Virus record (IMG/VR): IMGVR_UViG_3300017749_000006
Reading direction: 5' to 3' (one strand)
From: an uncultured virus (IMG/VR IMGVR_UViG_3300017749_000006)
Lineage: Duplodnaviria; Heunggongvirae; Uroviricota; Caudoviricetes
Length of the DNA stretch: 64,000 nucleotides
The notes under the pieces: model-generated
Told to the model about the DNA's origin: nothing
Seen by the model: only the letters and a program-made list of their open reading frames with translations
The model's database searches: none
Shown: positions 3,767 through 58,944 of the stretch, in pieces
Numbering within the stretch: the first letter of the stretch is position 1
Layout of the letters: every line of letters starts with the position of its first letter
Program-made: the position numbers and the translations under genes

Positions 3767-4000
3767 ATGAGCAAAGTACACAAAGAAGAATACTTGATAA
3801 TATTACAAGGAGAAATGACCCCATTTCAAAGGGCAACATTATCTAAGTTAATGATGAAAAAAGCAAAACAATATAATTTAGGTATGGCAGTTAATGATTG
3901 TCTAGGTAGTGAATTAGATTGGAATGAGATGATGGATAAGAAAAATCATCCACCTATTGCAGAATTAGTATACTTTAATAAAATGACAGGAGAGGAATAA
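3767..4000 (+). CDS. Hypothetical protein
   Basis: ORF track; strong SD and upstream promoter. Confidence 0.7.
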   Translation: MSKVHKEEYLIILQGEMTPFQRATLSKLMMKKAKQYNLGMAVNDCLGSELDWNEMMDKKNHPPIAELVYFNKMTGEE

Positions 4001-4001
4001 T

Positions 4002-4265
4002 ATGAATGAAGAAGAAAATAATATAACGGTAAAAGATGATGAACTAGAAGTAATTTTAGATATAGATGTTAACAAAGAAGAAAAACAGAAAGAGGCAAAT
4101 CAAAGGGCTTATCAAATAAGATTACAAGAGAAATATAAAACAGGTAACTTAGAACAAAAAGACCTTGATGAAGACTTAGAAGACTTAGAAGATGACCCTA
4201 TATATGATAATGATGACATTATGGAAATGTTTGGAGATTTTGAAGGAGATGAATACAATGAATAA
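4002..4265 (+). CDS. Very acidic hypothetical protein
   Basis: ORF track; D/E-rich C-terminus; SD. Confidence 0.7.
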   Translation: MNEEENNITVKDDELEVILDIDVNKEEKQKEANQRAYQIRLQEKYKTGNLEQKDLDEDLEDLEDDPIYDNDDIMEMFGDFEGDEYNE

Positions 4266-4428
4266 AACTACAATGATTGATAAACTAATACAAGTTGAAA
4301 GCGAATTAAAACTAGCAATTTGGACATACAAAATGAATGAAGCCCCGTTAGTTATAATTAATGAAATGAATGAAGCATTTAATCTTATTTTACAAGCGAT
4401 AAATATATTGGAGTGGGATGAAGAATGA
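4258..4428 (+). CDS. Hypothetical protein (MNKTTMIDKL...)
   Basis: ORF track with start moved to the ATG after GGAG. Confidence 0.55.
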   Translation: MNKTTMIDKLIQVESELKLAIWTYKMNEAPLVIINEMNEAFNLILQAINILEWDEE

Positions 4429-4658
4429 ATAAAAATAGCGATTATAATACTTTAGCAGAAAGAAGAGAACAATTATTTCAAGCACAGAAAGATGATTTTA
4501 CAAACGCACTTGTGGCGGCCATAGATGCCTCAAATGCTTTAGGTCTTGACCACAGTGTAGAATTATTATTAGATAGTATGATTGATGATTTTTGTAAAGA
4601 AGAATTAAATTTTAATATTTTTACTTTTACCGCTAAAATAAGAGGTGAAAGTAAATGA
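4425..4658 (+). CDS. Hypothetical protein
   Basis: ATGA-coupled ORF. Confidence 0.6.
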   Translation: MNKNSDYNTLAERREQLFQAQKDDFTNALVAAIDASNALGLDHSVELLLDSMIDDFCKEELNFNIFTFTAKIRGESK

Positions 4659-4746
4659 ATGAATGTGAATGTACAGAAATAATGAATGAAAAATTTGGTA
4701 CATATTGTAAATGGTGTTGGGATAATTTTATAGAGGTGAAAGAAGA

Positions 4747-4929
4747 ATGAGTTTAGAAAACCATATGGTTGTAGGGCCGGATGACTTTGATGAAGTAGTA
4801 GAATGCTTTCATGTAGGAGAATGGGCAATAGACAGAATTGATTTGGCGAATGGAGAAAACGTAGTTTCAATCAGATGCGTAGATTGCGGTGCAATTTTTG
4901 AAGGTAATGTAAGCGAGGTGATTGAATGA
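4747..4929 (+). CDS. Small Zn-finger-like protein
   Basis: GAGGTGA SD; CFH...CVDCG. Confidence 0.65.
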   Translation: MSLENHMVVGPDDFDEVVECFHVGEWAIDRIDLANGENVVSIRCVDCGAIFEGNVSEVIE

Positions 4930-5210
4930 GAGACTTGAGAAAAAATATGCTTGCGTCGTCAATTAAAAAAGTTAATAAAGAAAGACAAAGAGGAGATAAT
5001 ATGATTGGAACACAATTACAGAATAAGCACAACGGTAGACGCATTACTATAACAGAAAAAATAATTTCTGATACAGGTAATATTATGTACACGGCTAATG
5101 ATGAAAAATACACAGTATTAGCAGACCATGACATGAAGCATTGGTTTGAAGTATCAACAGTAAGAGTAAACAGAAAGCCTAAGTACATGGACAAAGGAGA
5201 GGAAGAATAA
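4926..5210 (+). CDS. Hypothetical protein
   Basis: GAGGTGA SD; ATGA overlap. Confidence 0.6.
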   Translation: MRDLRKNMLASSIKKVNKERQRGDNMIGTQLQNKHNGRRITITEKIISDTGNIMYTANDEKYTVLADHDMKHWFEVSTVRVNRKPKYMDKGEEE

Positions 5211-5307
5211 TGAAAGCAGGTGTAAGAGCAAGATACTTTACTAAATTTAAAGCAAGAAAAGCATACAAAGATAATGGTAATAAACATATAAAAGGAGATG
5301 AAGAAGA

Positions 5308-6462
5308 ATGATAGAAGAAATAGAAGAAGAAACATATACTTTAGCGGTTAAACTAAAAACATTACCGCAAAAAAGAACAAAGACAAATGGAGAAATAATC
5401 CCCCCTCATGAGGTATTTAACTACAGAAGTGATTATCATACAAGTGATAGGGCAGAAGTCAGAAGGTCTTATCTAACAGAAGTACCTTCTAGTGTGTATA
5501 ATTTAGTACAAAATTTTGCGGGTTATTGGGGTGAGGCTAAACCTTTAACGGCTAACGAAATAAATTTTTATTTAGGAAAGTTTGACGATTTAAAAACAAT
5601 TGCGATTTACAAAAATCAAATAAATGTCAATACAGGAAAGCCTTATCTTATCTTTACCCATAATAATAAATATACAGGTAATTATTCCACTGTATATAAA
5701 ATGGTAAATCAATTTAATATGTACACAAGTAATCCTAATTTATTAGATAATGCTATCATCGTAGATATGGATGAGTTTATGAGATTTTATAATGATGTTA
5801 AAGATGATTGGGAAGCACAAGATAATCTAAAAGAGACAATAAGGGATGAATCATCAAAGGTAATCAGATTAATAAACAAAGATAGAGATTTAACAAAGGC
5901 TTTAGAAGAAACAAGTAAAAAATTAGAGGAATTAAATTCTTTTAACGATTATAATATTTCTCAAGAAGATATAGAAATAGTACGTTTGTACAACGATAAA
6001 GATTTTCTACGTTCTTTAGGTAATGAGTATGTTGACCATGACTATAATAAATGGGATGATTTATACCGTAAGATAGTTCGCAAACTAGAAATCTACAAAA
6101 GAGCGATTAGTAGTGATTATTATGCCTACGCAAATATGGATTTCAATATAACACTAGATTTTTACTTAAAAGTACAAAAATATATCATGCAAACTTATAG
6201 TGATTCATCATACCCATTAATAAAACACCCTAATAAGTGGAATAAAGAAAAATCTGAATATGAAACAATAGCATTGAGTGATTTACCTGCCTTAGATGAA
6301 TATTGTGCGAGAATATCGGCACTAAATACTATGAAAATAACAATAAAAAATAAAAAAGATGAGATGATAAAATATTATCTATCACGGTTAAATTACAAAT
6401 CAGATTTAATTGTTTGTGATGTCAATTCGGAAACTTTAATAACAAAGGGCGAAGAGGAATAA
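5308..6462 (+). CDS. Hypothetical protein, 384 aa, coiled-coil rich
   Basis: Long ORF with SD. Confidence 0.75.
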   Translation: MIEEIEEETYTLAVKLKTLPQKRTKTNGEIIPPHEVFNYRSDYHTSDRAEVRRSYLTEVPSSVYNLVQNFAGYWGEAKPLTANEINFYLGKFDDLKTIAIYKNQINVNTGKPYLIFTHNNKYTGNYSTVYKMVNQFNMYTSNPNLLDNAIIVDMDEFMRFYNDVKDDWEAQDNLKETIRDESSKVIRLINKDRDLTKALEETSKKLEELNSFNDYNISQEDIEIVRLYNDKDFLRSLGNEYVDHDYNKWDDLYRKIVRKLEIYKRAISSDYYAYANMDFNITLDFYLKVQKYIMQTYSDSSYPLIKHPNKWNKEKSEYETIALSDLPALDEYCARISALNTMKITIKNKKDEMIKYYLSRLNYKSDLIVCDVNSETLITKGEEE

Positions 6463-6464
6463 CT

Positions 6465-7013
6465 ATGAATATATTTTTTATAGACGAACAACCGGAAGAA
6501 GCGGCACGTAACTTGTGCCTAAAACACAAACCTAAAATGTGTGTAGAGTCAGCACAAATGATGGCATCAGCAATTTTACGCTATGGTGCTTTGCCCGATA
6601 CTTTACCACTTACAAAATCCGGTACGCACTACAAAGGTGGTTACCCACATCACCCTTCTACTGTGTGGGCAGGAGAATGCGTAGAGAATTTCCGTTGGCT
6701 TGCCCGCCATGCTATACAACAATGCTTATCATATACAGAAACATTCGGTAAAGTTCATGCGTGTGAGCAACCTATCCGTGAGATGGCAGAACATTATGTA
6801 ATTCATCATATGCCTGTCAATGGAAGCGTTACAGATATTCCTTTGGCTATGAACGAAGAGACTACACGCCATGTTCCTTTGACTCAAGCAGTTCAAGAAT
6901 ACCGTGATTACTATTACCGTAAAACTAAAGTTATGGCAGTAGAATGGTCTGACAATCAAACACCTACATGGTGGGAAGATGTGTGTGTAAGAAACGGAGG
7001 TCTTGTAATATGA
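6465..7013 (+). CDS. Pyrimidine-dimer DNA glycosylase / endonuclease V-like protein
   Basis: MNIFFID..P..AA...C.KH..KM..ESAQM, HHPSTVWA and YRDYY motifs. Confidence 0.8.
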   Translation: MNIFFIDEQPEEAARNLCLKHKPKMCVESAQMMASAILRYGALPDTLPLTKSGTHYKGGYPHHPSTVWAGECVENFRWLARHAIQQCLSYTETFGKVHACEQPIREMAEHYVIHHMPVNGSVTDIPLAMNEETTRHVPLTQAVQEYRDYYYRKTKVMAVEWSDNQTPTWWEDVCVRNGGLVI

Positions 7014-7222
7014 AAGACAATATGTATGTTTGTATAAATAGTGGTAATGGTAATAATAAATTTATCAATCTAAATAATATAGACGCTATAATAAAACATG
7101 AGAATTATGGTACGGTTGATTTTCATATGAGTGGTGGAAGCATAATTACTTTACCCTTAAAAGAATTTGAAGACCCCGATGGTATTATTTCAAAAATAAG
7201 AGAAATATATAATATGTGCTAG
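7010..7222 (+). CDS. Hypothetical protein (MKDNMYVCIN...)
   Basis: ATGA coupling; GGAGG SD. Confidence 0.55.
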   Translation: MKDNMYVCINSGNGNNKFINLNNIDAIIKHENYGTVDFHMSGGSIITLPLKEFEDPDGIISKIREIYNMC

Positions 7223-7711
7223 GTGATAAAAATGACACAACCAATAGGAGATAGGACATTTAGCGTACCTAAATACAAAGTAACAGGTTATGCTTACGAT
7301 GGTAGGATTTGTTTAGATACAGGAGACAGGTGGTTAGTTAGAATGCCTCCGAGATATTTTGACCCATACAATGACCTTGATAAAAGTGATTTAGGTAGGG
7401 CTAAAAAATATTATGATGAAAGAATGGTAGCCGCAATATTGTGGCAATCAGTAGATAGTATGACCGAAGATGAATACCAATATCGCTCACAGAAATGGAA
7501 GCCTAAAGGTGCTTATGGTATAATAAGAAAGAAAGGGCTTCGGTGGGGCATTGGTGGCAGAGCAAAGGGCAACAATAAATACACGCCTAGAGATGAGTTA
7601 GCAAGAGCAGACCCAAATAACTTTAGGCATGGTAATAAATACCCATCATCTAAATATAATCAGTGGCAAAAAGATGGGGCTAGAAAAGAAAAGGAGAGTA
7701 AAAAGAAATGA
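7223..7711 (+). CDS. Basic hypothetical protein
   Basis: ORF track; AGGTGA SD. Confidence 0.7.
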   Translation: MIKMTQPIGDRTFSVPKYKVTGYAYDGRICLDTGDRWLVRMPPRYFDPYNDLDKSDLGRAKKYYDERMVAAILWQSVDSMTEDEYQYRSQKWKPKGAYGIIRKKGLRWGIGGRAKGNNKYTPRDELARADPNNFRHGNKYPSSKYNQWQKDGARKEKESKKK

Positions 7712-8007
7712 GACATACTATAAGCAGTAAAGTAAAAAACAAAGGAACTAAAAACAGGAACAGAAGTCGTATGTTAGATGCGGTAGCAAGATACATAGAA
7801 GAAAACGGGCCGTCTACTGTGTACAGTATATCCGACGGTGCTAGATTTAAGAATGGTAGATTAATAAAAAATAATAACTCATTCAAAAGTACAGTATCTT
7901 TAGCCCTTATATTAAGTCGCGACCCTAGATTTGTTAAGGTTGAAAAATTGACAAGAGAAAATACATATTTGTGGGGTAATGCTTGCGAAGTCATTACGGA
8001 AGATTAA
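7708..8007 (+). CDS. Winged-HTH-like DNA-binding protein
   Basis: YIEENGPSTVYSI...SLALILSRDPRFVKV...YLW pattern. Confidence 0.6.
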   Translation: MRHTISSKVKNKGTKNRNRSRMLDAVARYIEENGPSTVYSISDGARFKNGRLIKNNNSFKSTVSLALILSRDPRFVKVEKLTRENTYLWGNACEVITED

Positions 8008-8026
8008 AATACATGGGGGTTATGGT

Positions 8027-8200
8027 ATGGCTATGATGAAACAAAAGTTGGTAGAAGATTACAATACAGTAAATGACTTCATAATGTACCTAGCAAATCT
8101 AGGTACTGTTGATTTAAACACATGGATTAGGCGTAGTACAGAAGAACAATTAGAGTTACTAAAAGCCTCACAGAATTATTACGGCAAGGTGAGAGAATGA
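8027..8200 (+). CDS. Hypothetical protein
   Basis: ORF track, start adjusted. Confidence 0.5.
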   Translation: MAMMKQKLVEDYNTVNDFIMYLANLGTVDLNTWIRRSTEEQLELLKASQNYYGKVRE

Positions 8201-8454
8201 GTAGGTTTAGATTAGCAAGCGTTAAACACGCGGAGTATGAGATATACAAAGGTATGCTAGTCAATCAAAGAGATGAGCCTATACAAAGAACTATGCAAAA
8301 TATCTTTGATAGAGTAGTACCTAAGAATGATGCAGTAGCATTAAAGAGATGGAATACGGCCATCAAAAATGTCAAACATCAGATGACAAATAAGTTAGAA
8401 AATAGAAGACAGTATTTACCTGTTGGGCATATTGATAGGAGTGAAGAACAATGA
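8197..8454 (+). CDS. Hypothetical protein
   Basis: AGGTGA SD; ATGA coupling. Confidence 0.65.
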   Translation: MSRFRLASVKHAEYEIYKGMLVNQRDEPIQRTMQNIFDRVVPKNDAVALKRWNTAIKNVKHQMTNKLENRRQYLPVGHIDRSEEQ

Positions 8455-8633
8455 GTAAAATAGAGGATAAAGTAATTACAATGATTCAAGAAAGGGCTAT
8501 GACAGGCGAACTAAAGTATGGTACGAATATGGAACGTAGCGATTTATCTATGAAAGAATGGCTCACACACCTTCAAGAAGAATTATTAGATGCGGCAATT
8601 TATGTACAAAAACTCAAGGAATTGATAGGATAG
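8451..8633 (+). CDS. Small MazG-like all-alpha nucleotide pyrophosphatase-type protein
   Basis: G..KYG...R.DL....WL.H.QEE..D...Y motif common in marine viruses. Confidence 0.6.
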   Translation: MSKIEDKVITMIQERAMTGELKYGTNMERSDLSMKEWLTHLQEELLDAAIYVQKLKELIG

Positions 8634-8652
8634 AAACCCTTATTAATACTAA

Positions 8653-8940
8653 ATGGTTGGTGAATATATGGTGAAAAAACACAGAGCAAGAAGACCTATC
8701 GGTGAGATAATGAGGGATAAAAAAGAACCTATGTCGGCTTATGAGATAGCAGAACAAATGATGAATAAGAAAATGAAATTCTATGCTGAAAGACCCAAAA
8801 CAATAGCACAATTATTGAAAGGGGCGAAAGGTATTACAAGGAGTAAAGTATTACGAAAGAGAGAAATTACTTCTACTATAACTACTTTGTATCACATGGA
8901 AGATTACGAAGCATATGAGAGATGGTTACATGACAGATGA
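8653..8940 (+). CDS. Winged-HTH-like protein
   Basis: PMSAYEIAEQM...TIAQLLKG pattern. Confidence 0.55.
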   Translation: MVGEYMVKKHRARRPIGEIMRDKKEPMSAYEIAEQMMNKKMKFYAERPKTIAQLLKGAKGITRSKVLRKREITSTITTLYHMEDYEAYERWLHDR

Positions 8941-9124
8941 AGAACAAATGACAACAGAAGAAATATTGAGGAGAGCGTATAAATGGTTTGGTGTAAAAGC
9001 ACCTACTAACTATACCTTTAAGATAAGAGATGATTATGTAAAAACAATGAAAGCATATGCGGCTTGGGTAAGACAGGACAAGATAACAAACTCTACATGG
9101 TGGGATGAATGGAAAATAAATTGA
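8930..9124 (+). CDS. Hypothetical protein
   Basis: ORF track, start adjusted. Confidence 0.5.
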   Translation: MTDEEQMTTEEILRRAYKWFGVKAPTNYTFKIRDDYVKTMKAYAAWVRQDKITNSTWWDEWKIN

Positions 9125-9858
9125 TAGAAGTTCCTATTAGTAAAATAAAATTAGTAGAGGCAACATCTTTTACTTATGTAGGTGAAGGTAGATACTTGAA
9201 ACAACCTAAAATAGAAATTAAATATAACGATAAAAGTTATTTTATACTTGACAGAAAAGTATGTTATAGTTTGATAAAACAATTTGAGCCTAACATTACT
9301 TGGACAGAATGGGTACAAATACAAAACTTTGAGTTGTCTTTGTTTAAAATATTAGATGATTATTTTACTGAGTATAATAATTATATAATAAAAGTATGGG
9401 TAGAAAAATATAATGAAATACAAATTATATATGACTTTGAAATGGAAGATGTGTCTTTTGGTATTATGAGGCTAAATAACCTCAAGGCTAGTATTATGTA
9501 TATGTCAATAGAAGCGCTGAAGGATTGGGCTTTACATACTGTAAGCGACAAGATAACAATAAGTAAGGGAGATAATACGATAGAGATACAAGAGTATGAA
9601 AAGTTTGTTATTATACGAGCAAGAAAATATGTCGAAAATGGTTTTGTACAAACTATGCCCGCTATAAAAATATTGGGTATTATAGAAACTATTCAATGGT
9701 ATATTGTTTATGAATCTATTATAGAGGCTAAAGAAAGTTTAGAAAAAGCAGATAAAATGCAAACAAGAAATATAGGCAGTATAAAAAATACCGCAAATAT
9801 GAAGACTAAAGAAAAAGATGACATAGAACATGAATGGTTTCTTAATTCTTTTTACTAA
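9109..9858 (+). CDS. Hypothetical protein, 249 aa
   Basis: ORF track. Confidence 0.7.
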   Translation: MENKLIEVPISKIKLVEATSFTYVGEGRYLKQPKIEIKYNDKSYFILDRKVCYSLIKQFEPNITWTEWVQIQNFELSLFKILDDYFTEYNNYIIKVWVEKYNEIQIIYDFEMEDVSFGIMRLNNLKASIMYMSIEALKDWALHTVSDKITISKGDNTIEIQEYEKFVIIRARKYVENGFVQTMPAIKILGIIETIQWYIVYESIIEAKESLEKADKMQTRNIGSIKNTANMKTKEKDDIEHEWFLNSFY

Positions 9859-9888
9859 AAAAAATATAACAAAATTAATTAATGGAGG

Positions 9889-10008
9889 GCAGTAGCACGT
9901 TTTTGATAATTCTTTAATTACTTCAATAGTATTTTAGGTAATAGTTAACTAATCTAAAAACATCTATGAAGAAATAAAAGAATTAAAGAATATTAGAGCA
10001 GTACATCG
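9889..10008 (+). other. AT-rich origin-like element A
   Basis: Two GCAGTAnnnCG boxes (9889, 9998) around an AT-rich core; homologous to the reverse complement of 58822-58944. Confidence 0.6.
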
Positions 10009-10076
10009 TTTTATTATTTCTGTGGTTGCGTGGTCTTACTGAAACAATTAAAAGCGAACAAGTATGAGGTGATAGT

Positions 10077-10460
10077 ATGGCAAGAGGTAGTGGAAGTAAA
10101 CAGTGTGTAGAATTATCATACAGATATTTAGACCAACATGAAAAAAGAGAAGCAAGTACACATGACATAATGTGGTATTTGAACAATAGAAAGGTTACAA
10201 CGGGGTGCAGAAAAACTAAACAGACATGGAGTATTCAACAAGTATCTCAAATACTTAGAAAATCGCCGTACTTTATTAAAATAGGTACTGTAAGAAGTAT
10301 AACACCTTCCGGTAGTTCTTCTACGTGTTGTGTCTATAGATGTGCGGATTTGAAACAAGTGATTGCTAAAAAGTTATCTTACAGTCATAATATTTCTACA
10401 TATAAATCTGTACCGAAATTCGCAAGAGAAGAATATGTAAAGCAGGGGGGAGTATTGTGA
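10077..10460 (+). CDS. Winged-HTH-like protein
   Basis: ASTHDIMWYLN...QVSQILRKSPYFIKIG pattern; GAGGTGA SD. Confidence 0.6.
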   Translation: MARGSGSKQCVELSYRYLDQHEKREASTHDIMWYLNNRKVTTGCRKTKQTWSIQQVSQILRKSPYFIKIGTVRSITPSGSSSTCCVYRCADLKQVIAKKLSYSHNISTYKSVPKFAREEYVKQGGVL

Positions 10461-11266
10461 TAGAGCAAAAATTGGATATAGATATAGTGTGGCTTAACGG
10501 AAGAAGACCAAAAAAAGAGCAGACTCATTTAATAGTATATCATCAAGAAGAACATGGTGCGGCCACTACTATAGCGGGTAAAGCATTAATAGGAGAAAGG
10601 CCGCCTGTTGCTTCTATATATTCTAAGCATCTAAATACTACATCTGTTAATTTTATACCCGTACCTTTTTGGCCGGAGTATAGATTATACGAAACAAGAA
10701 ACAATGACGGTAAAAGATTTTTTGTCTTGAGAATACCTACTGCTTATCCTATTGAGTTAACACAAGATAGGTATGCAAATAAAGATGTGTGGATGCACAC
10801 TTATCCTGTGGTTAGAGACATCGTAATGACTCTTAATGAATTAGGTGTAAATAAAATGTCATATATGACTACAAATCTGTTTGTTTTGCATAAAGACTTT
10901 AAAGAGTATAGTAAAGTTGCACACGGAGAGGTAGTAAGTTACAATTGGTCTACAATGAAAGAAGAAGTTACTACTCATAGTGGAAAATATCAAGAAGATA
11001 GTTTAGAGTTAGATTATATTTTAGCACCGAATGTTTGGATATGGTGTGATGTTTTCTGTAATTTTACTTCTTCCCCCCTAAAATTATCAGAAGTATTATT
11101 AGGAAGTGCTAGTGGAGAATCAGTAGATATGGACACGGCAGACGCACTTTTAAACCATATACTTTTAACATATGACTTGTCGTGTGATGAATCTGCACTA
11201 CAAAGTATAACGGAAAAACTTGTAGATATGGACAACATTAAAAACTTTGGAGGACTTGACATATGA
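10457..11266 (+). CDS. PAC2 (proteasome assembly chaperone)-family protein, divergent
   Basis: Follows the PAC2 pattern: TIAGKALI, ASIYS, P.YRLY, Y.VV..I....ELGV..M, LLG...VD...A..LL..I....L..D...L. Confidence 0.6.
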   Translation: MIEQKLDIDIVWLNGRRPKKEQTHLIVYHQEEHGAATTIAGKALIGERPPVASIYSKHLNTTSVNFIPVPFWPEYRLYETRNNDGKRFFVLRIPTAYPIELTQDRYANKDVWMHTYPVVRDIVMTLNELGVNKMSYMTTNLFVLHKDFKEYSKVAHGEVVSYNWSTMKEEVTTHSGKYQEDSLELDYILAPNVWIWCDVFCNFTSSPLKLSEVLLGSASGESVDMDTADALLNHILLTYDLSCDESALQSITEKLVDMDNIKNFGGLDI

Positions 11267-12567
11267 ATATATTTGACAACATAAAAGACTTTGCTAGAAG
11301 AAACCACTATGTAGATGTAGAGGATAAAGTACCTATATTTATCTGTAGTATTGGAGCGCATATCTTTAATGCTCTTAATAAATGTTCTAGGTGTGACTTT
11401 GACCCCGATAGCCCTTTAGTAGATGAAGAAAATGATTTCTTGATTACCAATTGTGCTTTGAGACATAACAATATGCCCTTCTATACTCCTATGTCACAGT
11501 TACCCGACACACGAATTCATCTAATGCTTCGTGGCCCTAAAGGGTCGGGTAAATCTGTATTGATTATGATGTTCTTAGCGGAAGGTACGGGATTACTACA
11601 TAGTCAGAATGCTGACTTAGGGCAAGGTATGAGAACAATGCTTGGGCCTAACTCCGTTACAGAAGCAGGTATGTTTGGTAGTGTAGACGAAGAAGGTAAT
11701 ATTATGGGCCGACCATTGGCTAGAGATTTGTGTGGTGGCTTCTTAGGATTTGAAGAGTTTTCTTCTATGTCTGATGCGTCTAAAAAAGACCACAGTATGG
11801 ATATGAAAAATCAGTTACTTACTTCCTTAGATAATGGCCGTGTACAGAAAGCCTTGAGAGCAGGATGGGTTAGTTACACTACTAGATATACAGTATGGGC
11901 AGGTACACAACCTGCTAGGTTTGAGTTAGATTCCGGTCTTGACCGTAGATTCTTTATTATAGATATAGAAATGTCACCGCAAAAAGAATTGCTTTACAAA
12001 CAAGCACAACACAAACAATCTAATATGACGGTAGAAGAAAGAACTTCTCTAGCCACATTAAGTATAGAGATTAAACAATGGATACGAGAGAGAATGATGT
12101 TAGCAGTTTCAGAACCGCCTACAGGAATTATTTTTGCCGATGATATTGGTGATTGGATTAATAGGCCGGACATACGTTCTTTTGAGGCTGACTTGTTCAG
12201 AAGATTAGCGATAGGCTATCATATGATGTTGCCAACATATAGAGGAGGGCAACCACTAATGATTACTCTTGACAATACTTTAGAGACTATACTAAATATG
12301 TCACTAGAACAACGTCGTAGAGTTATGGATGCAGATTCAGAACTTATCAGAACTACCTTTTGGATGAAAGACTTACCTAAGTCAGAATTACTCAAGGAGA
12401 TTTCCCGTATGATTACTATGGGAGATTATCAAAGTGCTAAAAGATGGGTAGTAGAAAACTTAGAAGGACAGTCTTGGTATTGTGAGTATGAACCGGAGAC
12501 TTCTAGGCGTGGTAGAAAAGGTATGCTTTGTAGGATAGGGCCAAACGCAAATACTATGGGTGAGTAA
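11263..12567 (+). CDS. MCM-like AAA+ ATPase/helicase lacking the N-terminal domain
   Basis: RIHLMLRGPKGSGKS Walker A, TEAGMFG, EEF Walker B, AGTQP sensor, LDRRF arginine finger. Confidence 0.75.
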   Translation: MNIFDNIKDFARRNHYVDVEDKVPIFICSIGAHIFNALNKCSRCDFDPDSPLVDEENDFLITNCALRHNNMPFYTPMSQLPDTRIHLMLRGPKGSGKSVLIMMFLAEGTGLLHSQNADLGQGMRTMLGPNSVTEAGMFGSVDEEGNIMGRPLARDLCGGFLGFEEFSSMSDASKKDHSMDMKNQLLTSLDNGRVQKALRAGWVSYTTRYTVWAGTQPARFELDSGLDRRFFIIDIEMSPQKELLYKQAQHKQSNMTVEERTSLATLSIEIKQWIRERMMLAVSEPPTGIIFADDIGDWINRPDIRSFEADLFRRLAIGYHMMLPTYRGGQPLMITLDNTLETILNMSLEQRRRVMDADSELIRTTFWMKDLPKSELLKEISRMITMGDYQSAKRWVVENLEGQSWYCEYEPETSRRGRKGMLCRIGPNANTMGE

Positions 12568-12846
12568 ATGGGTAGAAAATCAAAAACGACAAAGGCTTGG
12601 TGGCCCGCAGTAAGAAAATACTTACAGAATAGGAGAGATGATAAACTTCCGTTTGTCACAAGTAATGTTATTATAGCAGAAGCCTACATGATTGGTTCAT
12701 ATGGTAGTGCGGCTCAAGATAAACTATTATGTCAATCAAGAATGTGTCCTACACAAAGAGAATTATCAAGATGGTTGGCAGACCATCCCGATATTATAAG
12801 CGTTAAAAAACAAAGAGTAGAGTGGGGTTTAAAAAATGAAAACTAG
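12568..12846 (+). CDS. Winged-HTH-like protein
   Basis: CPTQRELSRWLADHPDI...VEW pattern. Confidence 0.5.
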   Translation: MGRKSKTTKAWWPAVRKYLQNRRDDKLPFVTSNVIIAEAYMIGSYGSAAQDKLLCQSRMCPTQRELSRWLADHPDIISVKKQRVEWGLKNEN

Positions 12847-13453
12847 ATTTGAAATACAACAAAGATTAAGAAATGAAAACGATATGTTTGCTATGGAAGT
12901 TCTTAGATGGGTTCTTGATGGCGGGTGTGCTTTATGCGACCACAAAAAGAAGAAAGAATTTGAAATAGAATTAAATAACGGTGATACTACTCCCGATTAT
13001 TTAGAGAGTAAATATAGTTGGTCGGAAGGTACAGTAATGAAGCACATGGAGAGTCACGTAGAGTTTGACCCCGAAGAAGCAGAACACGTAGAGGAAGCAA
13101 GAAAACAATCTATAAATACGTTAGATGCGGCAGAAGATATTGTGAATAGAATAGCATCGTACCTAGATGAGTTAGAAGAAAGAAAGGAAGCACACGGCGG
13201 TATCACTTCCGATTTCGTTGCTGATGCGGCTAAGTTAATCGGTCAAGCAAATTCAAGCCTAAAGTTAGTAGGTCAATTGAAGAAAGAGATAGGTGTAGAT
13301 TCTCAATTATTATTAGCACAATCACAAATGAATCATATGTCAAATATACTTGTAGATGTTCTTGGTACTAATCCGCAATTACTAGACCAAATAGAGTTTA
13401 GGATGGCGGCACTTAAAGCACCTGTCACAGTAGATTATGAGGTTATAGAATGA
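12836..13453 (+). CDS. Zn-finger/HTH plus coiled-coil protein (possibly terminase small subunit-like)
   Basis: CALCDH...HMESH motif followed by helical region. Confidence 0.5.
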   Translation: MKTRFEIQQRLRNENDMFAMEVLRWVLDGGCALCDHKKKKEFEIELNNGDTTPDYLESKYSWSEGTVMKHMESHVEFDPEEAEHVEEARKQSINTLDAAEDIVNRIASYLDELEERKEAHGGITSDFVADAAKLIGQANSSLKLVGQLKKEIGVDSQLLLAQSQMNHMSNILVDVLGTNPQLLDQIEFRMAALKAPVTVDYEVIE

Positions 13454-13704
13454 AGAAATGGCGCACAGGTAAAAACGTAAGTCTTTTTGCTAGACCTATC
13501 TATAAAGATGATATGCCTATTCTTATACAAGCCATGATAGATGATGGTTTGATGGGTACTATTGGAGATAGAGGTGTCTTGTGGGAATATAACGGTTATA
13601 GTATTACCCCTAAAGCGGTGCGTGATGCTTGGGGTTTAACTGCTACTCAATATAAACGAATATGTGATTATATTTATGAGCATGACCCTTTCTATACTGT
13701 ATAA
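13450..13704 (+). CDS. Hypothetical protein
   Basis: ATGA coupling. Confidence 0.6.
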   Translation: MKKWRTGKNVSLFARPIYKDDMPILIQAMIDDGLMGTIGDRGVLWEYNGYSITPKAVRDAWGLTATQYKRICDYIYEHDPFYTV

Positions 13705-13748
13705 AGTAAGTATGTTAAAAATCATGGCAAAAAATTTGGAGTGGTTAC

Positions 13749-14414
13749 ATGGGTATTGTGATTTTTACAAAAGACGACTCGCAGTTTTTAGTAGGCGACT
13801 ATGTTATAATGGTTAAAGAAATTGATACCTCTCTTAGTAATCCCGAAGTAAATTATATCTTACGAACAAATAAATTTACAGAAGCAGATGTTATCGCTTG
13901 GCTACCATATATAACCACTAAACTAATTGTATGTATAGATAAAGCACCTAAGATTACTAAAAAGACAGAAGACAATGTAATAATTGATAAGTCACTAAAG
14001 GTTGCTAGTGACCGCAAAAACTTAACTGCTATAACCTCTATAATTAATTGGTCAGATAGATTAAGAGTGTGGAAACAGATACAGACTTTACCTGTTCCCT
14101 ATGCTTTAGTGTTTTTAAAACAGAATGTAAAAGATATAGACACTTGGAGATTAATAGCACAAACTAATATGGAATTGCCCGAAGATTATACAAAGGCTAT
14201 CTTTGCTTATTCTATAACGGGTAAAAGACAGAGTGTGGCTTGGCCTAAGAAGCAAAAAGTTAAAGAGCAAGCACCACCACCTTTCCGCATGGGAGATAAG
14301 TATTGGCAAGAGATTATAACCTCTAAAGAAGTTGGTAATGAAATTAGAGAGCAAGGTATAGATTTACCTAAAGGTATGAAAAAAACAAAACAGAAGGTGA
14401 ATGAATGGGTTTAG
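13749..14414 (+). CDS. Hypothetical protein, possible degenerate RFC large subunit
   Basis: P.....FLKQN and WP..., Lys-rich tail ending in PIP-like QKVNEWV; weak similarity only. Confidence 0.4.
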   Translation: MGIVIFTKDDSQFLVGDYVIMVKEIDTSLSNPEVNYILRTNKFTEADVIAWLPYITTKLIVCIDKAPKITKKTEDNVIIDKSLKVASDRKNLTAITSIINWSDRLRVWKQIQTLPVPYALVFLKQNVKDIDTWRLIAQTNMELPEDYTKAIFAYSITGKRQSVAWPKKQKVKEQAPPPFRMGDKYWQEIITSKEVGNEIREQGIDLPKGMKKTKQKVNEWV

Positions 14415-14596
14415 CCTTCTTATGTAGTATAATATTTATAGTATTATTCGTTAGTTTCTTTATAGGTTTTTTTATTTCTTTTACTGACATATATATTGCT
14501 ATAGAAAATACACCTGCTACTGAACATCTAATCCCTACACAGGAACAACAAGATAATTCTTTTGCTTATACCGCTATGTGGTTAGATATTGATTAA
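14405..14596 (+). CDS. Small membrane protein
   Basis: N-terminal hydrophobic helix; AGGTGA SD. Confidence 0.6.
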   Translation: MGLAFLCSIIFIVLFVSFFIGFFISFTDIYIAIENTPATEHLIPTQEQQDNSFAYTAMWLDID

Positions 14597-14634: not shown

Positions 14635-15042
14635 ATGAGCGCGAATAACCGCCGCATTCGACGTATCATTGTAGAGATACTTTTTGAGTGTGGACAGATG
14701 ACAAAAGAAGGAATGGCAGATATGTTAGCACAACGTAAAACTGTTCGTACTGTTCCTAGCCCACATAGTTTAGCGGCCCTTATGTCTAAGAATCCACAGA
14801 TAGTAGCGACGGGTTCAGAAGCAGTAGAAAATGCCGTAGGAACTAAGGCTATGCACTTAATTTATGACATAGATAGAGAGTTAATTAAAAATAAAGATGA
14901 TATTACCTACACACGTTCTTTGACAGTTATGACTCCTAGTGAGAAAGCAAAATCTCAAAAATGTTCCTGTAGTAGAACTAGAGTCTTCCCTCCTAATAGT
15001 GATGTCTGTCTACATTGTATAAGAGAACAATCAACATCTTAA
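14635..15042 (+). CDS. Winged-HTH plus C-terminal Zn-finger protein
   Basis: PSPHSLAALMSKNPQIV and CSC...CLHC. Confidence 0.65.
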   Translation: MSANNRRIRRIIVEILFECGQMTKEGMADMLAQRKTVRTVPSPHSLAALMSKNPQIVATGSEAVENAVGTKAMHLIYDIDRELIKNKDDITYTRSLTVMTPSEKAKSQKCSCSRTRVFPPNSDVCLHCIREQSTS

Positions 15043-16641: not shown

Positions 16642-17838
16642 ATGATAGATGAAAAAATAATACAAAGAACTGCTAATACGCTGAATATAGATATAAACAC
16701 TCTCAAGAGTAGGACAGATGAAATCCTGTTGGCTCAAGGAGAGGCATGGAAAAATGCAGGTAAATCAGAACAAGATTGTTATGCCCTAGCATTAAAGGTA
16801 GCCGGTAGTAAAATTAAAAATGAAAACTCAAGACTACTACGTTCCGGTGCTTCTAAATTAGAAGGTATGTTTATATCAGTACCACGCCCTAAAGAATGGG
16901 GTAAGATACTATACAATAAAATGAAGAGTCAAATGATTAGTGCGTCAGAAGAAGTACGTCAACAATTTGTAGACAATGGAAAGATTGTACTATACAATGA
17001 TAATGGTGATGGAACTTATACTAGATATGCTAGAGAAGATTTCTTCGGTGAAGATACTACTAATGTAAATGAACTAGACAAGAACGCTATGCGTCTTGAT
17101 GGTGACTCTTACTTCTACTGTGTATGGGATAGTAACAACCCTACTTTCCCTAGTGGAGATAGAAACTTTAAATTCGGTAATGCAAGACCACAAAACGAAC
17201 AAGAAAGAACATCTATGTTCTTAGGTCGTGTAGAAGGTTCTAGTGATGAAGTAAAGATGATGACTGTAACCGCACAAGGTAAAGCGGCAGATATGCAATA
17301 CCCAACATTCACCCCTTTGACTATGGCTCTACGTGTCGGTAAAGACGGTAAGAAATGCTACGTTAAAGCAGATATGGCTAACTATACCGCAGATGCTAGT
17401 AAAGCAGAAATCTTTTCAGCCGCACCTATCATGGCTGACGGTACAGGGTTAGTACCTTCTCTGTTAGGTTCAGAAAATATGTTGTCATCATTAGATGCTC
17501 TACGTGATTACTATGACCAATTCAACGGCCAAGCCGGTTGGTGGGATAGAATAGTAGGTGTAATAGGTGAAGTAATTCATATAGACCCTAGAGATAACGG
17601 TGGTTATACTCTTGTGTGTGCTGATTTAGATATAGCATCAGTAGCACCTGTAGTAGAAGTATACGTTCCATCAGAACATGGTAGTAGAGTAGACTTTGCA
17701 GTAGGTACTAAGATATTATTAGTCGGTCAAACATGGAGAACAAGAGATACAGATGAACAAAAATTATCTGTAAACGGTTGGTATCCTTTTGACGAAGTAG
17801 AGGCTATGGAAACTGTAGACGCAGAAGGGTGGGATTAA
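16642..17838 (+). CDS. Probable ssDNA-binding (RPA/OB-fold) protein
   Basis: OB-like C-terminal strands, acidic tail ending EGWD, position in replication cluster; AGGTGA SD supports start 16642. Confidence 0.55.
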   Translation: MIDEKIIQRTANTLNIDINTLKSRTDEILLAQGEAWKNAGKSEQDCYALALKVAGSKIKNENSRLLRSGASKLEGMFISVPRPKEWGKILYNKMKSQMISASEEVRQQFVDNGKIVLYNDNGDGTYTRYAREDFFGEDTTNVNELDKNAMRLDGDSYFYCVWDSNNPTFPSGDRNFKFGNARPQNEQERTSMFLGRVEGSSDEVKMMTVTAQGKAADMQYPTFTPLTMALRVGKDGKKCYVKADMANYTADASKAEIFSAAPIMADGTGLVPSLLGSENMLSSLDALRDYYDQFNGQAGWWDRIVGVIGEVIHIDPRDNGGYTLVCADLDIASVAPVVEVYVPSEHGSRVDFAVGTKILLVGQTWRTRDTDEQKLSVNGWYPFDEVEAMETVDAEGWD

Positions 17839-18050
17839 TGCAAGCGTTGGGCAACAATGTTATTGTTGAACCAACCCCACAGTCTGATAGCGGCTTAATC
17901 ATAAATACATCTTACTCCGTTCTATCAATAGGTTCTCTAGTTCCTACACAAATAAGTGTAGGTTCTAGGGTTCTTATTGAATCAGATAGTTTAAAGACAG
18001 AAGGTATTACTAAGTATTGTAAATTCTCAGATATTATAGCGGTGATATAA
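17838..18050 (+). CDS. groES: GroES-like co-chaperonin, 70 aa
   Basis: ALGNNVIVEP, SGLII, V.SIG, VG.RV, DIIAVI; adjacent to groEL. Confidence 0.8.
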   Translation: MQALGNNVIVEPTPQSDSGLIINTSYSVLSIGSLVPTQISVGSRVLIESDSLKTEGITKYCKFSDIIAVI

Positions 18051-19556
18051 ATGAAAACATTAATAACAGGTAAAGAAGCAAGTAACAAATTACTACAAGG
18101 AGTAAACAAAGTAGCCAATGCGGTTAAAGGAACTCTAGGGCCAAACGCCCGAACTGTAATTATACAAAGAGAAGATACTTTCCCCCTTATATTAAATGAT
18201 GGAGTTACTATTGCTAAAGCAGTAAATGACCCCGACCCCTATGTACAAATGGGTATAGATTTAATTAAGGAAGTGGCATCACAAGCACAACATAAGTCCG
18301 GTGATGGTACTACTACTGCTACATTATTAGCGCAAGCCCTATGTAATATAGGGTATGATGCTATCCATAGAGGAGAAGATGCAGTAGGTTTAACTAACGC
18401 TATAAAAGAAGAGGCTGAAATTATCATAGATAAATTATTAGAAGAAGCAATTCCTGTTACTGATGACAAAGATATGTTAAAGAATGTTGCTATCATAGCA
18501 TCTAACAACGATGAAGACTTAGGTAATCTGATAGCAGAAGTTATGGACAAAGTAGGTTCGGAAGGTGCAATAGCAGTAGAGGCCGGTAGTGGTTTCGATA
18601 CTATATATAATATAGAATCCGGTCTTGAAGTACAGTCGGGTGCAGTTAGCCCTTACTTTACACAGAATTTAGTAAACTCTAATGTTTTATTAACAAGTGA
18701 CAGGTTAGATAACTTTGAAAGTTTAGTACCTGCTCTTGAACTTTCTATGAAAGCGGGTAGAGGACTAATGATTTTCTGCTCTGACTATAATCCTGCTATG
18801 TTACCTAATATACTTATTAATGTAGTACAAGGAAAGATAAGTGCCTGTATTGTAAAGACGGCAGGTATGGGTCAAGGACAACAAGATTGGTTACAGGATA
18901 TACAATCAGTGACAGGTGGACATATGTTTTCTAAGATTTTAGGTGATAATATTTTAGAGGTTAAAGAAAATCAATTAGGTTTTGTACTAAAAGCAGATTG
19001 TACTAAAGATACTACTATGTTGCTTACCGAAAAAGATACTAGGGATGAAAAACATATTGATAAATTATATCAACAATTAGATGATAGTGACAATAATTGG
19101 GAAAAGCAGACACTTACCCGTAGGATTGCACGATTAACTGACGGTGTTGCATCCATTAAAGTAGGTGCTAATACAGAAATAGAATTACGAGAGCGTAAAG
19201 AAAGAATAGATGATGCAGTAAACGCAGTTAGGGCCGCACAAAGAAACGGAGTAATTGCAGGTGGTGGTGTGTTACTTAGACATTTTGGAGAACAAAGTTC
19301 TTTAGAGATTATAAAAGAAGCATTTGTTATGCCCGAAGAAACATTACTAGATAATGCAGGGATAATGCAGTATCCTAAAATACAATACGATGAAGATGCT
19401 GACTTAGGTTTTGACATGAAAGAAAAAGGAGTCTATGACCCTGTTGATGTCACTATAAATTCTATAAGAAGTGCGGTATCTATAGCGGTATTAGTATTAT
19501 TATCAGATGCGTTAGTAGGTCTACCTGCTGACAAGTTTATAAGCAAAGAAGTATGA
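18051..19556 (+). CDS. groEL: Group I chaperonin GroEL
   Basis: AVKGTLGP, NDGVTIAK, GDGTTTAT, ERIDDAVNAVRAA, GGG, GVYDP. Confidence 0.95.
   Translation: MKTLITGKEASNKLLQGVNKVANAVKGTLGPNARTVIIQREDTFPLILNDGVTIAKAVNDPDPYVQMGIDLIKEVASQAQHKSGDGTTTATLLAQALCNIGYDAIHRGEDAVGLTNAIKEEAEIIIDKLLEEAIPVTDDKDMLKNVAIIASNNDEDLGNLIAEVMDKVGSEGAIAVEAGSGFDTIYNIESGLEVQSGAVSPYFTQNLVNSNVLLTSDRLDNFESLVPALELSMKAGRGLMIFCSDYNPAMLPNILINVVQGKISACIVKTAGMGQGQQDWLQDIQSVTGGHMFSKILGDNILEVKENQLGFVLKADCTKDTTMLLTEKDTRDEKHIDKLYQQLDDSDNNWEKQTLTRRIARLTDGVASIKVGANTEIELRERKERIDDAVNAVRAAQRNGVIAGGGVLLRHFGEQSSLEIIKEAFVMPEETLLDNAGIMQYPKIQYDEDADLGFDMKEKGVYDPVDVTINSIRSAVSIAVLVLLSDALVGLPADKFISKEV
19536..19553 (+). promoter_or_regulatory. TATA promoter, leaderless start at 19566
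   Basis: TTTATAAGCAAAGAAGTA begins 30 nt before the ATG. Confidence 0.65.
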
Positions 19557-58741: not shown

Positions 58742-58821
58742 AGTATTAAAACATATAGGTGTTCCATAAACCTTTCTGTTTATTCTTTTTGTTGTTTTTT
58801 CGTTTTTTAAAAAGAATTAAT

Positions 58822-58944
58822 CGTTATACTGCGCCTTTTTTCGTTAATTCTTTTATTTCTTCTATTATGTTTGAAAATTTTAAAGGGGGGTTTCTAAAAA
58901 ATACTATTGAATTAATTAAAGAATTAATATAATCGTTATACTGC
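58822..58944 (-). other. AT-rich origin-like element B (inverted homolog of 9889-10008)
   Basis: Two GCAGTATAACG boxes on the minus strand; blocks of 28/29 and 19/19 identity to element A. Confidence 0.6.

Follow-up and report, generated by a model that had tools for sequence, protein, structure and literature searches.

In archaea, the PAC2-fold protein PbaB requires its C-terminal HbYX motif (hydrophobic residue, tyrosine, any residue) to bind and to activate the 20S proteasome, forms a tetramer and acts as a holdase (PMC3605417). For the MCM (minichromosome maintenance) helicases, the AAA+ domain of SsoMCM has helicase activity on its own when isolated, and the N-terminal half of the protein stimulates it in trans (PMC1807962). 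The presence of MCM in magroviruses is already published, and it was reported for all 26 magroviruses of Philosof et al. (PMC5434244). Here, we describe a locus of the window, i.e. the whole stretch of 64,000 nucleotides analysed from an uncultured virus (IMG/VR record IMGVR_UViG_3300017749_000006), in which the gene of a PAC2/PbaB-fold protein, 10457, is directly followed by that of an MCM-like ATPase, 11263 (genes are named by their first coordinate). The reading that we favour, with about even confidence, is that one operon carries two separable functions, a minimal viral helicase and a captured PbaB-like cap or holdase that is accessory to it. The features of the locus are the following.

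10077..10460, + strand: small DUF3860-like winged-helix protein of 127 residues, one of at least five paralogues in the window
10457..11266, + strand: PAC2/PbaB-fold protein of 269 residues
11246..11263, + strand: C-terminus of 10457, FGGLDI, without an HbYX-type ending; overlaps the ribosome-binding region of the MCM gene
11263..12567, + strand: MCM-type AAA+ ATPase of 434 residues without the N-terminal domain
11383..11466, + strand: Cys/His insertion C41-x2-C44...C64-x3-H68 of 11263, candidate zinc site before Walker A
12568..12846, + strand: small paralogue of the winged helix-turn-helix family, 92 residues, in a variable slot
12836..13453, + strand: conserved protein of 205 residues with an invariant CxxC...HxxxH and a helical body
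13450..14414, + strand: genes 13450 (84 residues) and 13749 (221 residues), constant members of the run

The first-pass annotation of this DNA had described an operon of four tightly coupled genes. The four open reading frames, 10077, 10457, 11263 and 12568, are all present and are joined by ATGA/GTGA overlaps or by a zero gap; the coupling is as described. Its extent is not, however, since the run continues gapless into 12836, 13450 and 13749, which are steadier members than the fourth gene. The conserved unit is an upstream DNA element followed by (winged helix-turn-helix)-PAC2-MCM-12836-13450-13749, and the fourth gene is a variable paralogue. The median identity to the proteins of the window, in the locus survey, is 73% for MCM, 62% for 12836, 31% for PAC2 and 24% for 10077.

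The AF2 model of 10457, built from 62 sequences, has a pLDDT of 92. Foldseek placed P. furiosus PbaB (3vr0) first with an E value of 9.8e-9, followed by other PAC2/Pba chains. In the same way, the VIA structure search gave PbaB a Z score of 18.6, with a root-mean-square deviation of 4.3 over 228 residues; the top nine rows were all of the PAC2/Pba type and the next fold appeared at Z 9.7. A profile of 101 family sequences, compared with the PDB, also returned PbaB first (E 0.0021). The modelled chain has the PAC2 alpha/beta/alpha fold along its whole length, and the PAC2 assignment proposed from the sequence pattern is confirmed by structure and by profile. Pfam PAC2 (PF09754) exhibited no match for the window protein, with 1 of 62 members matched at E 0.079 and 0 of 82 distant homologues. 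Neither 10457 nor 11263 was named by sequence searches alone of Pfam, PHROGs and NCBIfam, nor by phmmer against the PDB, narrow profiles or tblastn against the phage collection. ESM Atlas returned unnamed clusters only, and the PAC2 model retrieved from BFVD two unnamed viral matches and nothing else under E 0.001. The profile search with 10457 over 1.84 billion representatives led to 95 proteins. Ten deep homologues that were looked up are all on contigs of at most 72 kb, and the family fits a virus-only distribution, without this being proof; for three distant homologues no loci were found in IMG/VR. Across the 101 sequences, Y116 is the sole invariant residue.

The protein 11263 had been described as starting at the AAA+ domain, without the N-terminal OB/Zn domain. 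This description holds, as residues 1-357 align to the AAA+ domain of MCM alone, with Z scores of 16-20 (residues 273-597 of M. acidophilum MCM). Lower rows of the fold search were BchI (Z 14.9), RavA (14.7), ComM (13.6) and Cch (12.5), while ClpX, Lon and p97 scored 8.4 or less. The motifs are a Walker A GPKGSGKS (91-98), a Walker B FEE (163-165), Q216, the arginine pair 228-229 and R305/E308; the usual Walker B of MCM is DE. The searches for homologues covered a range of about 240-760 residues and kept the best 120 of each. The 153 full-length homologues have 428-464 residues, with at most 26 residues ahead of Met1 of the window protein, and G91, G96, K97, E164, E165, Q216, R228, R229, R305 and E308 are invariant in 153/153. 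Pfam MCM was matched by only 1 of 38 members, at E 0.034. The C-terminal region (about 360-426) is modelled as helix-helix-strand-strand and is covered by the alignments to Cch and SaPI Rep and not by the MCM rows, with a forkhead match at E 1.5; it is probably a winged helix. The Cys/His insertion noted before Walker A is a near-invariant CCCH set in the 153 homologues, C41 being kept in 149, C44 in 153, C64 in 150 and H68 in 152 of them.

An orthologue of 394 residues with the same start point was found, in the plasmid search, in Halobaculum (NZ_CP058532; hhalign 99.8%, E 1e-27). It is without the CCCH insertion, and it is flanked by a RadA-like ATPase, a DnaQ-like exonuclease and a primase. 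The short MCM is thus a broader family, and one associated with genes of replication. The region 3897-10474 of this 'plasmid' is an unannotated virus-like replication cluster, which also encodes a PadR winged helix-turn-helix protein.

We examined the linkage of the two genes in 100 distinct loci, chosen by MCM. The PAC2 gene is adjacent to the MCM gene in 76 and near it in 9; another 9 loci have no PAC2 although 2.5 kb or more of flank is available, and 6 could not be assessed. The predicted conservation of the neighbourhood was thus observed, PAC2 being adjacent or near in 85 of the 94 loci with enough flank, and the stop and start codons of the two genes usually overlap. In one locus, a 306-residue open reading frame (7070-7990) lies between them and breaks the coupling. 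The linkage speaks for a reading that we consider unlikely, in which 10457 serves the short MCM as a dedicated partner, namely as an assembly chaperone, a loader or a surrogate N-terminal tier raising processivity. The stimulation of the SsoMCM core in trans (PMC1807962) and the titles of PAC1/PAC2 structures, which present these proteins as ring-assembly chaperones, agree with such a role. The MCM OB domain (PF17207) was found in none of 5 complete genomes and none of the 43 open reading frames of the window, a negative that also agrees, although Pfam barely detects the motor domain either.

This partnership is weakened by four near-complete relatives (G007-G010, of which G007 has terminal repeats) that keep the short MCM and the upstream element and have no detectable PAC2. 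The PAC2-less set consisted of five records read whole; one of the five, G011, was not counted because its contig ends 33 nucleotides before the MCM match. The PAC2 profile matched 0/5 of these records and 5/5 PAC2-bearing controls, six-frame hmmsearch for PAC2 gave nothing under E 0.06, and hhalign of each frame of 180-380 residues reached at most 5.1%, compared with 99.7-100% in two controls. Additionally, no PAC2 was present among the 12 open reading frames scanned beside the Halobaculum orthologue. Therefore, PAC2 is not obligatory, since the four genomes and the Halobaculum locus carry the short MCM alone, and the proposal of the first-pass annotation that a PAC2 ring substitutes for the missing N-terminal tier has lost ground. 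PAC2 also diverges far faster than MCM (31% against 73%), its fold differs from OB/Zn, and the oligomers of Pba proteins have four or five subunits instead of six (PMC3605417). On the MCM tree two changes of the PAC2 state are needed; a tree that joins the PAC2-less records in one clade is not rejected (p-AU 0.20), and hence we give no count of PAC2 losses. A chaperone or loader role on MCM keeps some standing, because the tight linkage is otherwise unexplained.

The C-terminal tails bear on the proteasome. Many relatives of 10457 end in MFG, MYG, MFQ, MWG or FYA. For the count, 74 of the 95 representatives were retained (235-305 residues; two with aberrant ends removed), and the HbYX pattern was [LVIMGAPFYW][FY]x of Forouzan et al. 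(PMC3493965). It ends 31 of the 74 representatives, and 48 of the 74 when Trp is allowed, compared with 13 of 843 distinct tails of neighbour proteins; in T. acidophilum it was counted in 63 of 1484 proteins (PMC3493965). The stricter ending [ML][FY]X closes 30/74 representatives, which share less than 50% identity. On a quick tree of 120 non-redundant homologues, HbYX-type tails are found on most deep branches, which suggests, with a midpoint root only, that the tail may be ancestral in the family. The motif is missing in 66 of the 120, the window's copy among them. The homologue ending GVMYG overlaps the MCM start in 4 of 5 fetched loci, the fifth stopping at the contig end. HbYX tails have been noted in viral proteomes generally by ProEnd (PMC11475706), and the human 20S tolerates Phe at the aromatic position (PMC8907193).

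Several points weigh against the assignment of a helicase and a proteasome cap. The model of 11263 has a middling pLDDT of 73, with residues 166-205 under 50. Tyr is rare in the tail (4/74 representatives and 5/120 homologues), in M. mazei Tyr activated more strongly than Phe (PMC3493965), and no test of Trp at this position was found in the literature. In the 120-homologue tree the window's 10457 sits in a clade of 22 rows without an HbYX-type tail. The Shine-Dalgarno region of the MCM gene shares nucleotides with the tail codons, W-G-stop reading GGGG(A/T)TGA, which is Shine-Dalgarno-like, and the G-V-M codons reading GGGGTGATG; because of this overlap, part of the tail pattern may be RNA-level selection. 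As PbaA has the motif and yet does not bind the mature 20S (PMC3605417), the tail alone is no proof of docking. Finally, PAC2 keeps beside MCM in the 85 of 94 loci despite an identity of 18-31%, for which a purely proteasomal role does not account.

The overlap with the Shine-Dalgarno region, together with the 66 of 120 homologues without the motif and the single invariant residue Y116, is what one would expect if the tail were a by-product of translational coupling and 10457 had been exapted for another infection role, neither proteasomal nor helicase-related. We hold this to be rather unlikely, since in the M-F-x and M-Y-x tails the aromatic codon falls in the spacer behind the Shine-Dalgarno sequence and the codons for F, Y and W interchange, since similarly overlapping neighbour genes show the pattern in the 13 of 843 tails only, and since [ML][FY]X recurs among representatives as divergent as those counted above. 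In the W-G-stop tails, W is found rather than R or G in 15/15, but these rows are related, so that the count is not strong. A possible though tentative account is that magroviruses captured a host proteasome cap to take over the archaeal 20S during infection, with the change from Tyr to Phe or Trp tuning the tail so that it opens or blocks the gate, and that some lineages, that of the window among them, dropped the tail and kept a chaperone or loader of an MCM ring which functions in the absence of an N-terminal tier.

It had also been suggested that the ATPase and PAC2 act as a pair on the host proteasome. In its full form, the pair would be a regulatory particle of the virus, unfolding substrates and passing them on to the host proteasome, and an HbYX-type PAC2 coupled to an AAA+ protein without the DNA-binding tier of MCM is consistent with it. 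The PAC2 side of the suggestion finds support in the frequent HbYX-type tails of the family and none in the window's copy, which has no such tail. The ATPase side finds no support, as the fold is nearest MCM and not PAN, Cdc48 or Lon, and an HbYX-type tail ends 0 of 28 non-redundant homologues of 11263. Moreover, the ATPase is retained where PAC2 is missing and always follows the DNA element, the haloarchaeal orthologue lies among replication genes, and no other helicase candidate was found among the 43 open reading frames scanned in the window. We regard such a particle as very unlikely.

The separate-functions reading can be put as follows. Two functions would share an operon at the head of the magrovirus replication block. 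The first, 11263, would be the viral replicative (fork) helicase, an MCM cut down to its AAA+ motor and winged helix, whose ring most likely assembles at or near the upstream element. The CCCH insertion may partly stand in for the lost N-terminal zinc domain in stabilising the ring or contacting DNA. The second, 10457, would derive from PbaA/PbaB of a host. Its homologues in most deep lineages end in hydrophobic-aromatic-X, and the oligomer most likely docks, without ATP, on the alpha ring of the host 20S, where it would open or occupy the gate and hold unfolded proteins as PbaB does. In the sub-lineage of the window, the tail has been shortened and the motif lost, which makes a holdase or a weakly docking cap the likelier role of this copy. 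The protein would be accessory to the helicase and not a structural tier of MCM. Motor and chaperone look like separate tools, because relatives keep MCM without PAC2 and many PAC2 tails are of the docking type.

The DNA element ahead of the run exists in two copies in the window.

9886..10012, no strand: element A, non-coding, two GCAGTA-N3-CG boxes 109 nucleotides apart around an AT-rich core
58819..58942, no strand: second copy in the opposite orientation, between the divergent portal and terminase-side genes

The core of element A exhibits 19-nucleotide inverted arms (9907-9925 and 9967-9985). At least one box is present in 39 of 45 non-redundant relatives and two in 28, direct or inverted and 104-163 nucleotides apart, compared with 2.6% of shuffled sequences. 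The region between genes 13749 and 14635, taken as control for the box, gave 0/66, although this is a weak control, as it seems to encode a small protein. Of 11 genomes, 10 have a box pair or AT core ahead of MCM, the four PAC2-less ones among them, and the eleventh is cut by the contig end; the element tracks MCM more closely than PAC2 does. The locus had been called origin-adjacent. The conserved, MCM-linked element agrees with this, while the second copy at 58.8 kb and the GC skew, which does not change at 10 kb and tracks the gene strand, do not. The second copy lies near a sign change of the GC skew, and a candidate second site is present in 4 of 10 other genomes. An origin is plausible for element A, and a regulatory element at the operon head is the alternative. 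The adjoining region 9109-9858 holds a fast-evolving gene of 249 residues and of no known family, which abuts the element in most relatives, and also in several that are without 10077 or PAC2; its product is a candidate box-binding initiator.

The window also encodes PolB, one RFC subunit, GroEL, an ERCC4 nuclease, portal, terminase and tail proteins. Proteins identical to its own were found on contigs of up to 66.6 kb, and in the phage collection the nearest relatives of its PolB are those of haloarchaeal tailed viruses. By gene content, the genome matches the magrovirus type (PMC5434244; PMC10768690), and the host assignment, Poseidoniales, is taken over from the same papers. A 61-kb contig of this virus type has been binned, probably wrongly, into an Opitutales metagenome-assembled genome; this virus-like contig, the only match in a cellular genome, gave no match to the PAC2 family. 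At 17829-19556, a GroES-like open reading frame of 73 residues, judged by eye, abuts the GroEL gene.

The small genes around the pair belong to one family of winged helix-turn-helix-like paralogues.

7708-8007, 8653-8940, 10077-10460, 12568-12846 and 14635-15042: paralogues whose copy number and position vary among genomes

Profile-profile comparison joined the five as one family, 12568 being linked to the 7708 family at 97.8%. DUF3860, the best outside match of the family, was matched by 11 of 45 homologues of 10077 (best E 2.3e-6), and the 10077/12568 family gave weak matches to Z-alpha and 2od5 (E 0.35-1.4); we take DUF3860 and 2od5 to be winged helices. The earlier winged helix-turn-helix calls for 10077 and 12568 are thus favoured by DUF3860 and the paralogue links, although this evidence is modest. 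In 57 of 76 loci, the gene just before PAC2 is a homologue of 10077. In 95 loci, the position between MCM and the 12836 homologue is taken by the 12568 family in 10, by another paralogue in 52 and by other genes in 7, and is empty in 26.

Further downstream, the 12836 homologue is the gene right after MCM in 92 of 94 loci, at the median identity of 62%. The protein presumably resembles terminase small subunits, and its gene is far from the terminase gene. As a split-off N-terminus of MCM, 9109 and 13749 were unsupported by PDB or Pfam profiles, and 12836 found no support in single-sequence scans; 13749 as an RFC subunit had no profile match. In 55 of 58 non-redundant homologues of 13749 (13749-14414), the penultimate residue is aromatic and nearly always Trp (e.g. 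QKVNEWV), which hints at clamp binding by the tail. A similar ending, E/D-W-V/I, closes some PAC2 homologues. The region 14405-14596 holds a small hydrophobic open reading frame, and relatives have short membrane-type frames there with A-M-[FW]-L-like ends.

We found no paper on PAC2, proteasome assembly chaperones or HbYX in magroviruses or archaeal viruses, and the word 'proteasome' is absent from the main texts of PMC10160649, PMC5332604 and PMC8651126. If the account of a proteasome takeover is true, magroviruses encode both a minimal MCM of natural origin and a viral protein that regulates the proteasome of archaea. Archaea cannot do without their proteasome, and docking of the tail would mean that viruses abundant in the ocean control the protein turnover of their hosts. 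A conserved MCM that lacks the N-terminal tier, as seen in elements of marine origin and of haloarchaea, also offers a natural way to ask why loading and processivity need this tier, and a candidate origin lies next to the gene.

Compared with P. furiosus PbaB (3VR0), 10457 shares the fold over 228 residues, a long C-terminal helix and, in many viral homologues, an HbYX-type end. It differs in being virus-encoded, 15-16% identical, below Pfam PAC2 detection and coupled to a helicase, and the viral tails usually have Phe or Trp instead of Tyr, with none in the window's copy. With archaeal and eukaryotic MCM (8Q67; SsoMCM), 11263 shares the AAA+ domain from the first helix to sensor II, the Walker A and the arginine finger, whereas it is without the N-terminal helical/Zn/OB domain, has the FEE Walker B and the CCCH insertion, and is 11-17% identical. 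In common with magroviruses (PMC5434244; Aoguangviridae, PMC10768690) are PolB, RFC, GroEL, portal, terminase, MCM and a genome of about 66 kb; the truncated MCM, the PAC2 protein and the upstream element are unmentioned in the available portion of PMC5434244 and in PMC10768690. The Halobaculum halophilum protein HUG10_RS20505 (NZ_CP058532), annotated as hypothetical, is short and MCM-like with the same start and a replication context, but is without CCCH and without a PAC2 neighbour. BcMCM (PMC2715239), Cch of SCCmec (5DGK) and SaPIbov1 Rep (8TCH), which belong to mobile elements, have, like 11263, an MCM-type motor and are all without the standard N-terminus of MCM. In BcMCM it is swapped for another Zn/single-stranded DNA-binding domain (PMC2715239), and 11263 has none, while Cch (Z 12.5) and SaPIbov1 Rep (Z 9.6) score below true MCMs against 11263. 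The MCMs of Thermococcales viruses took the opposite course, an extra domain being added (PMC12934983).

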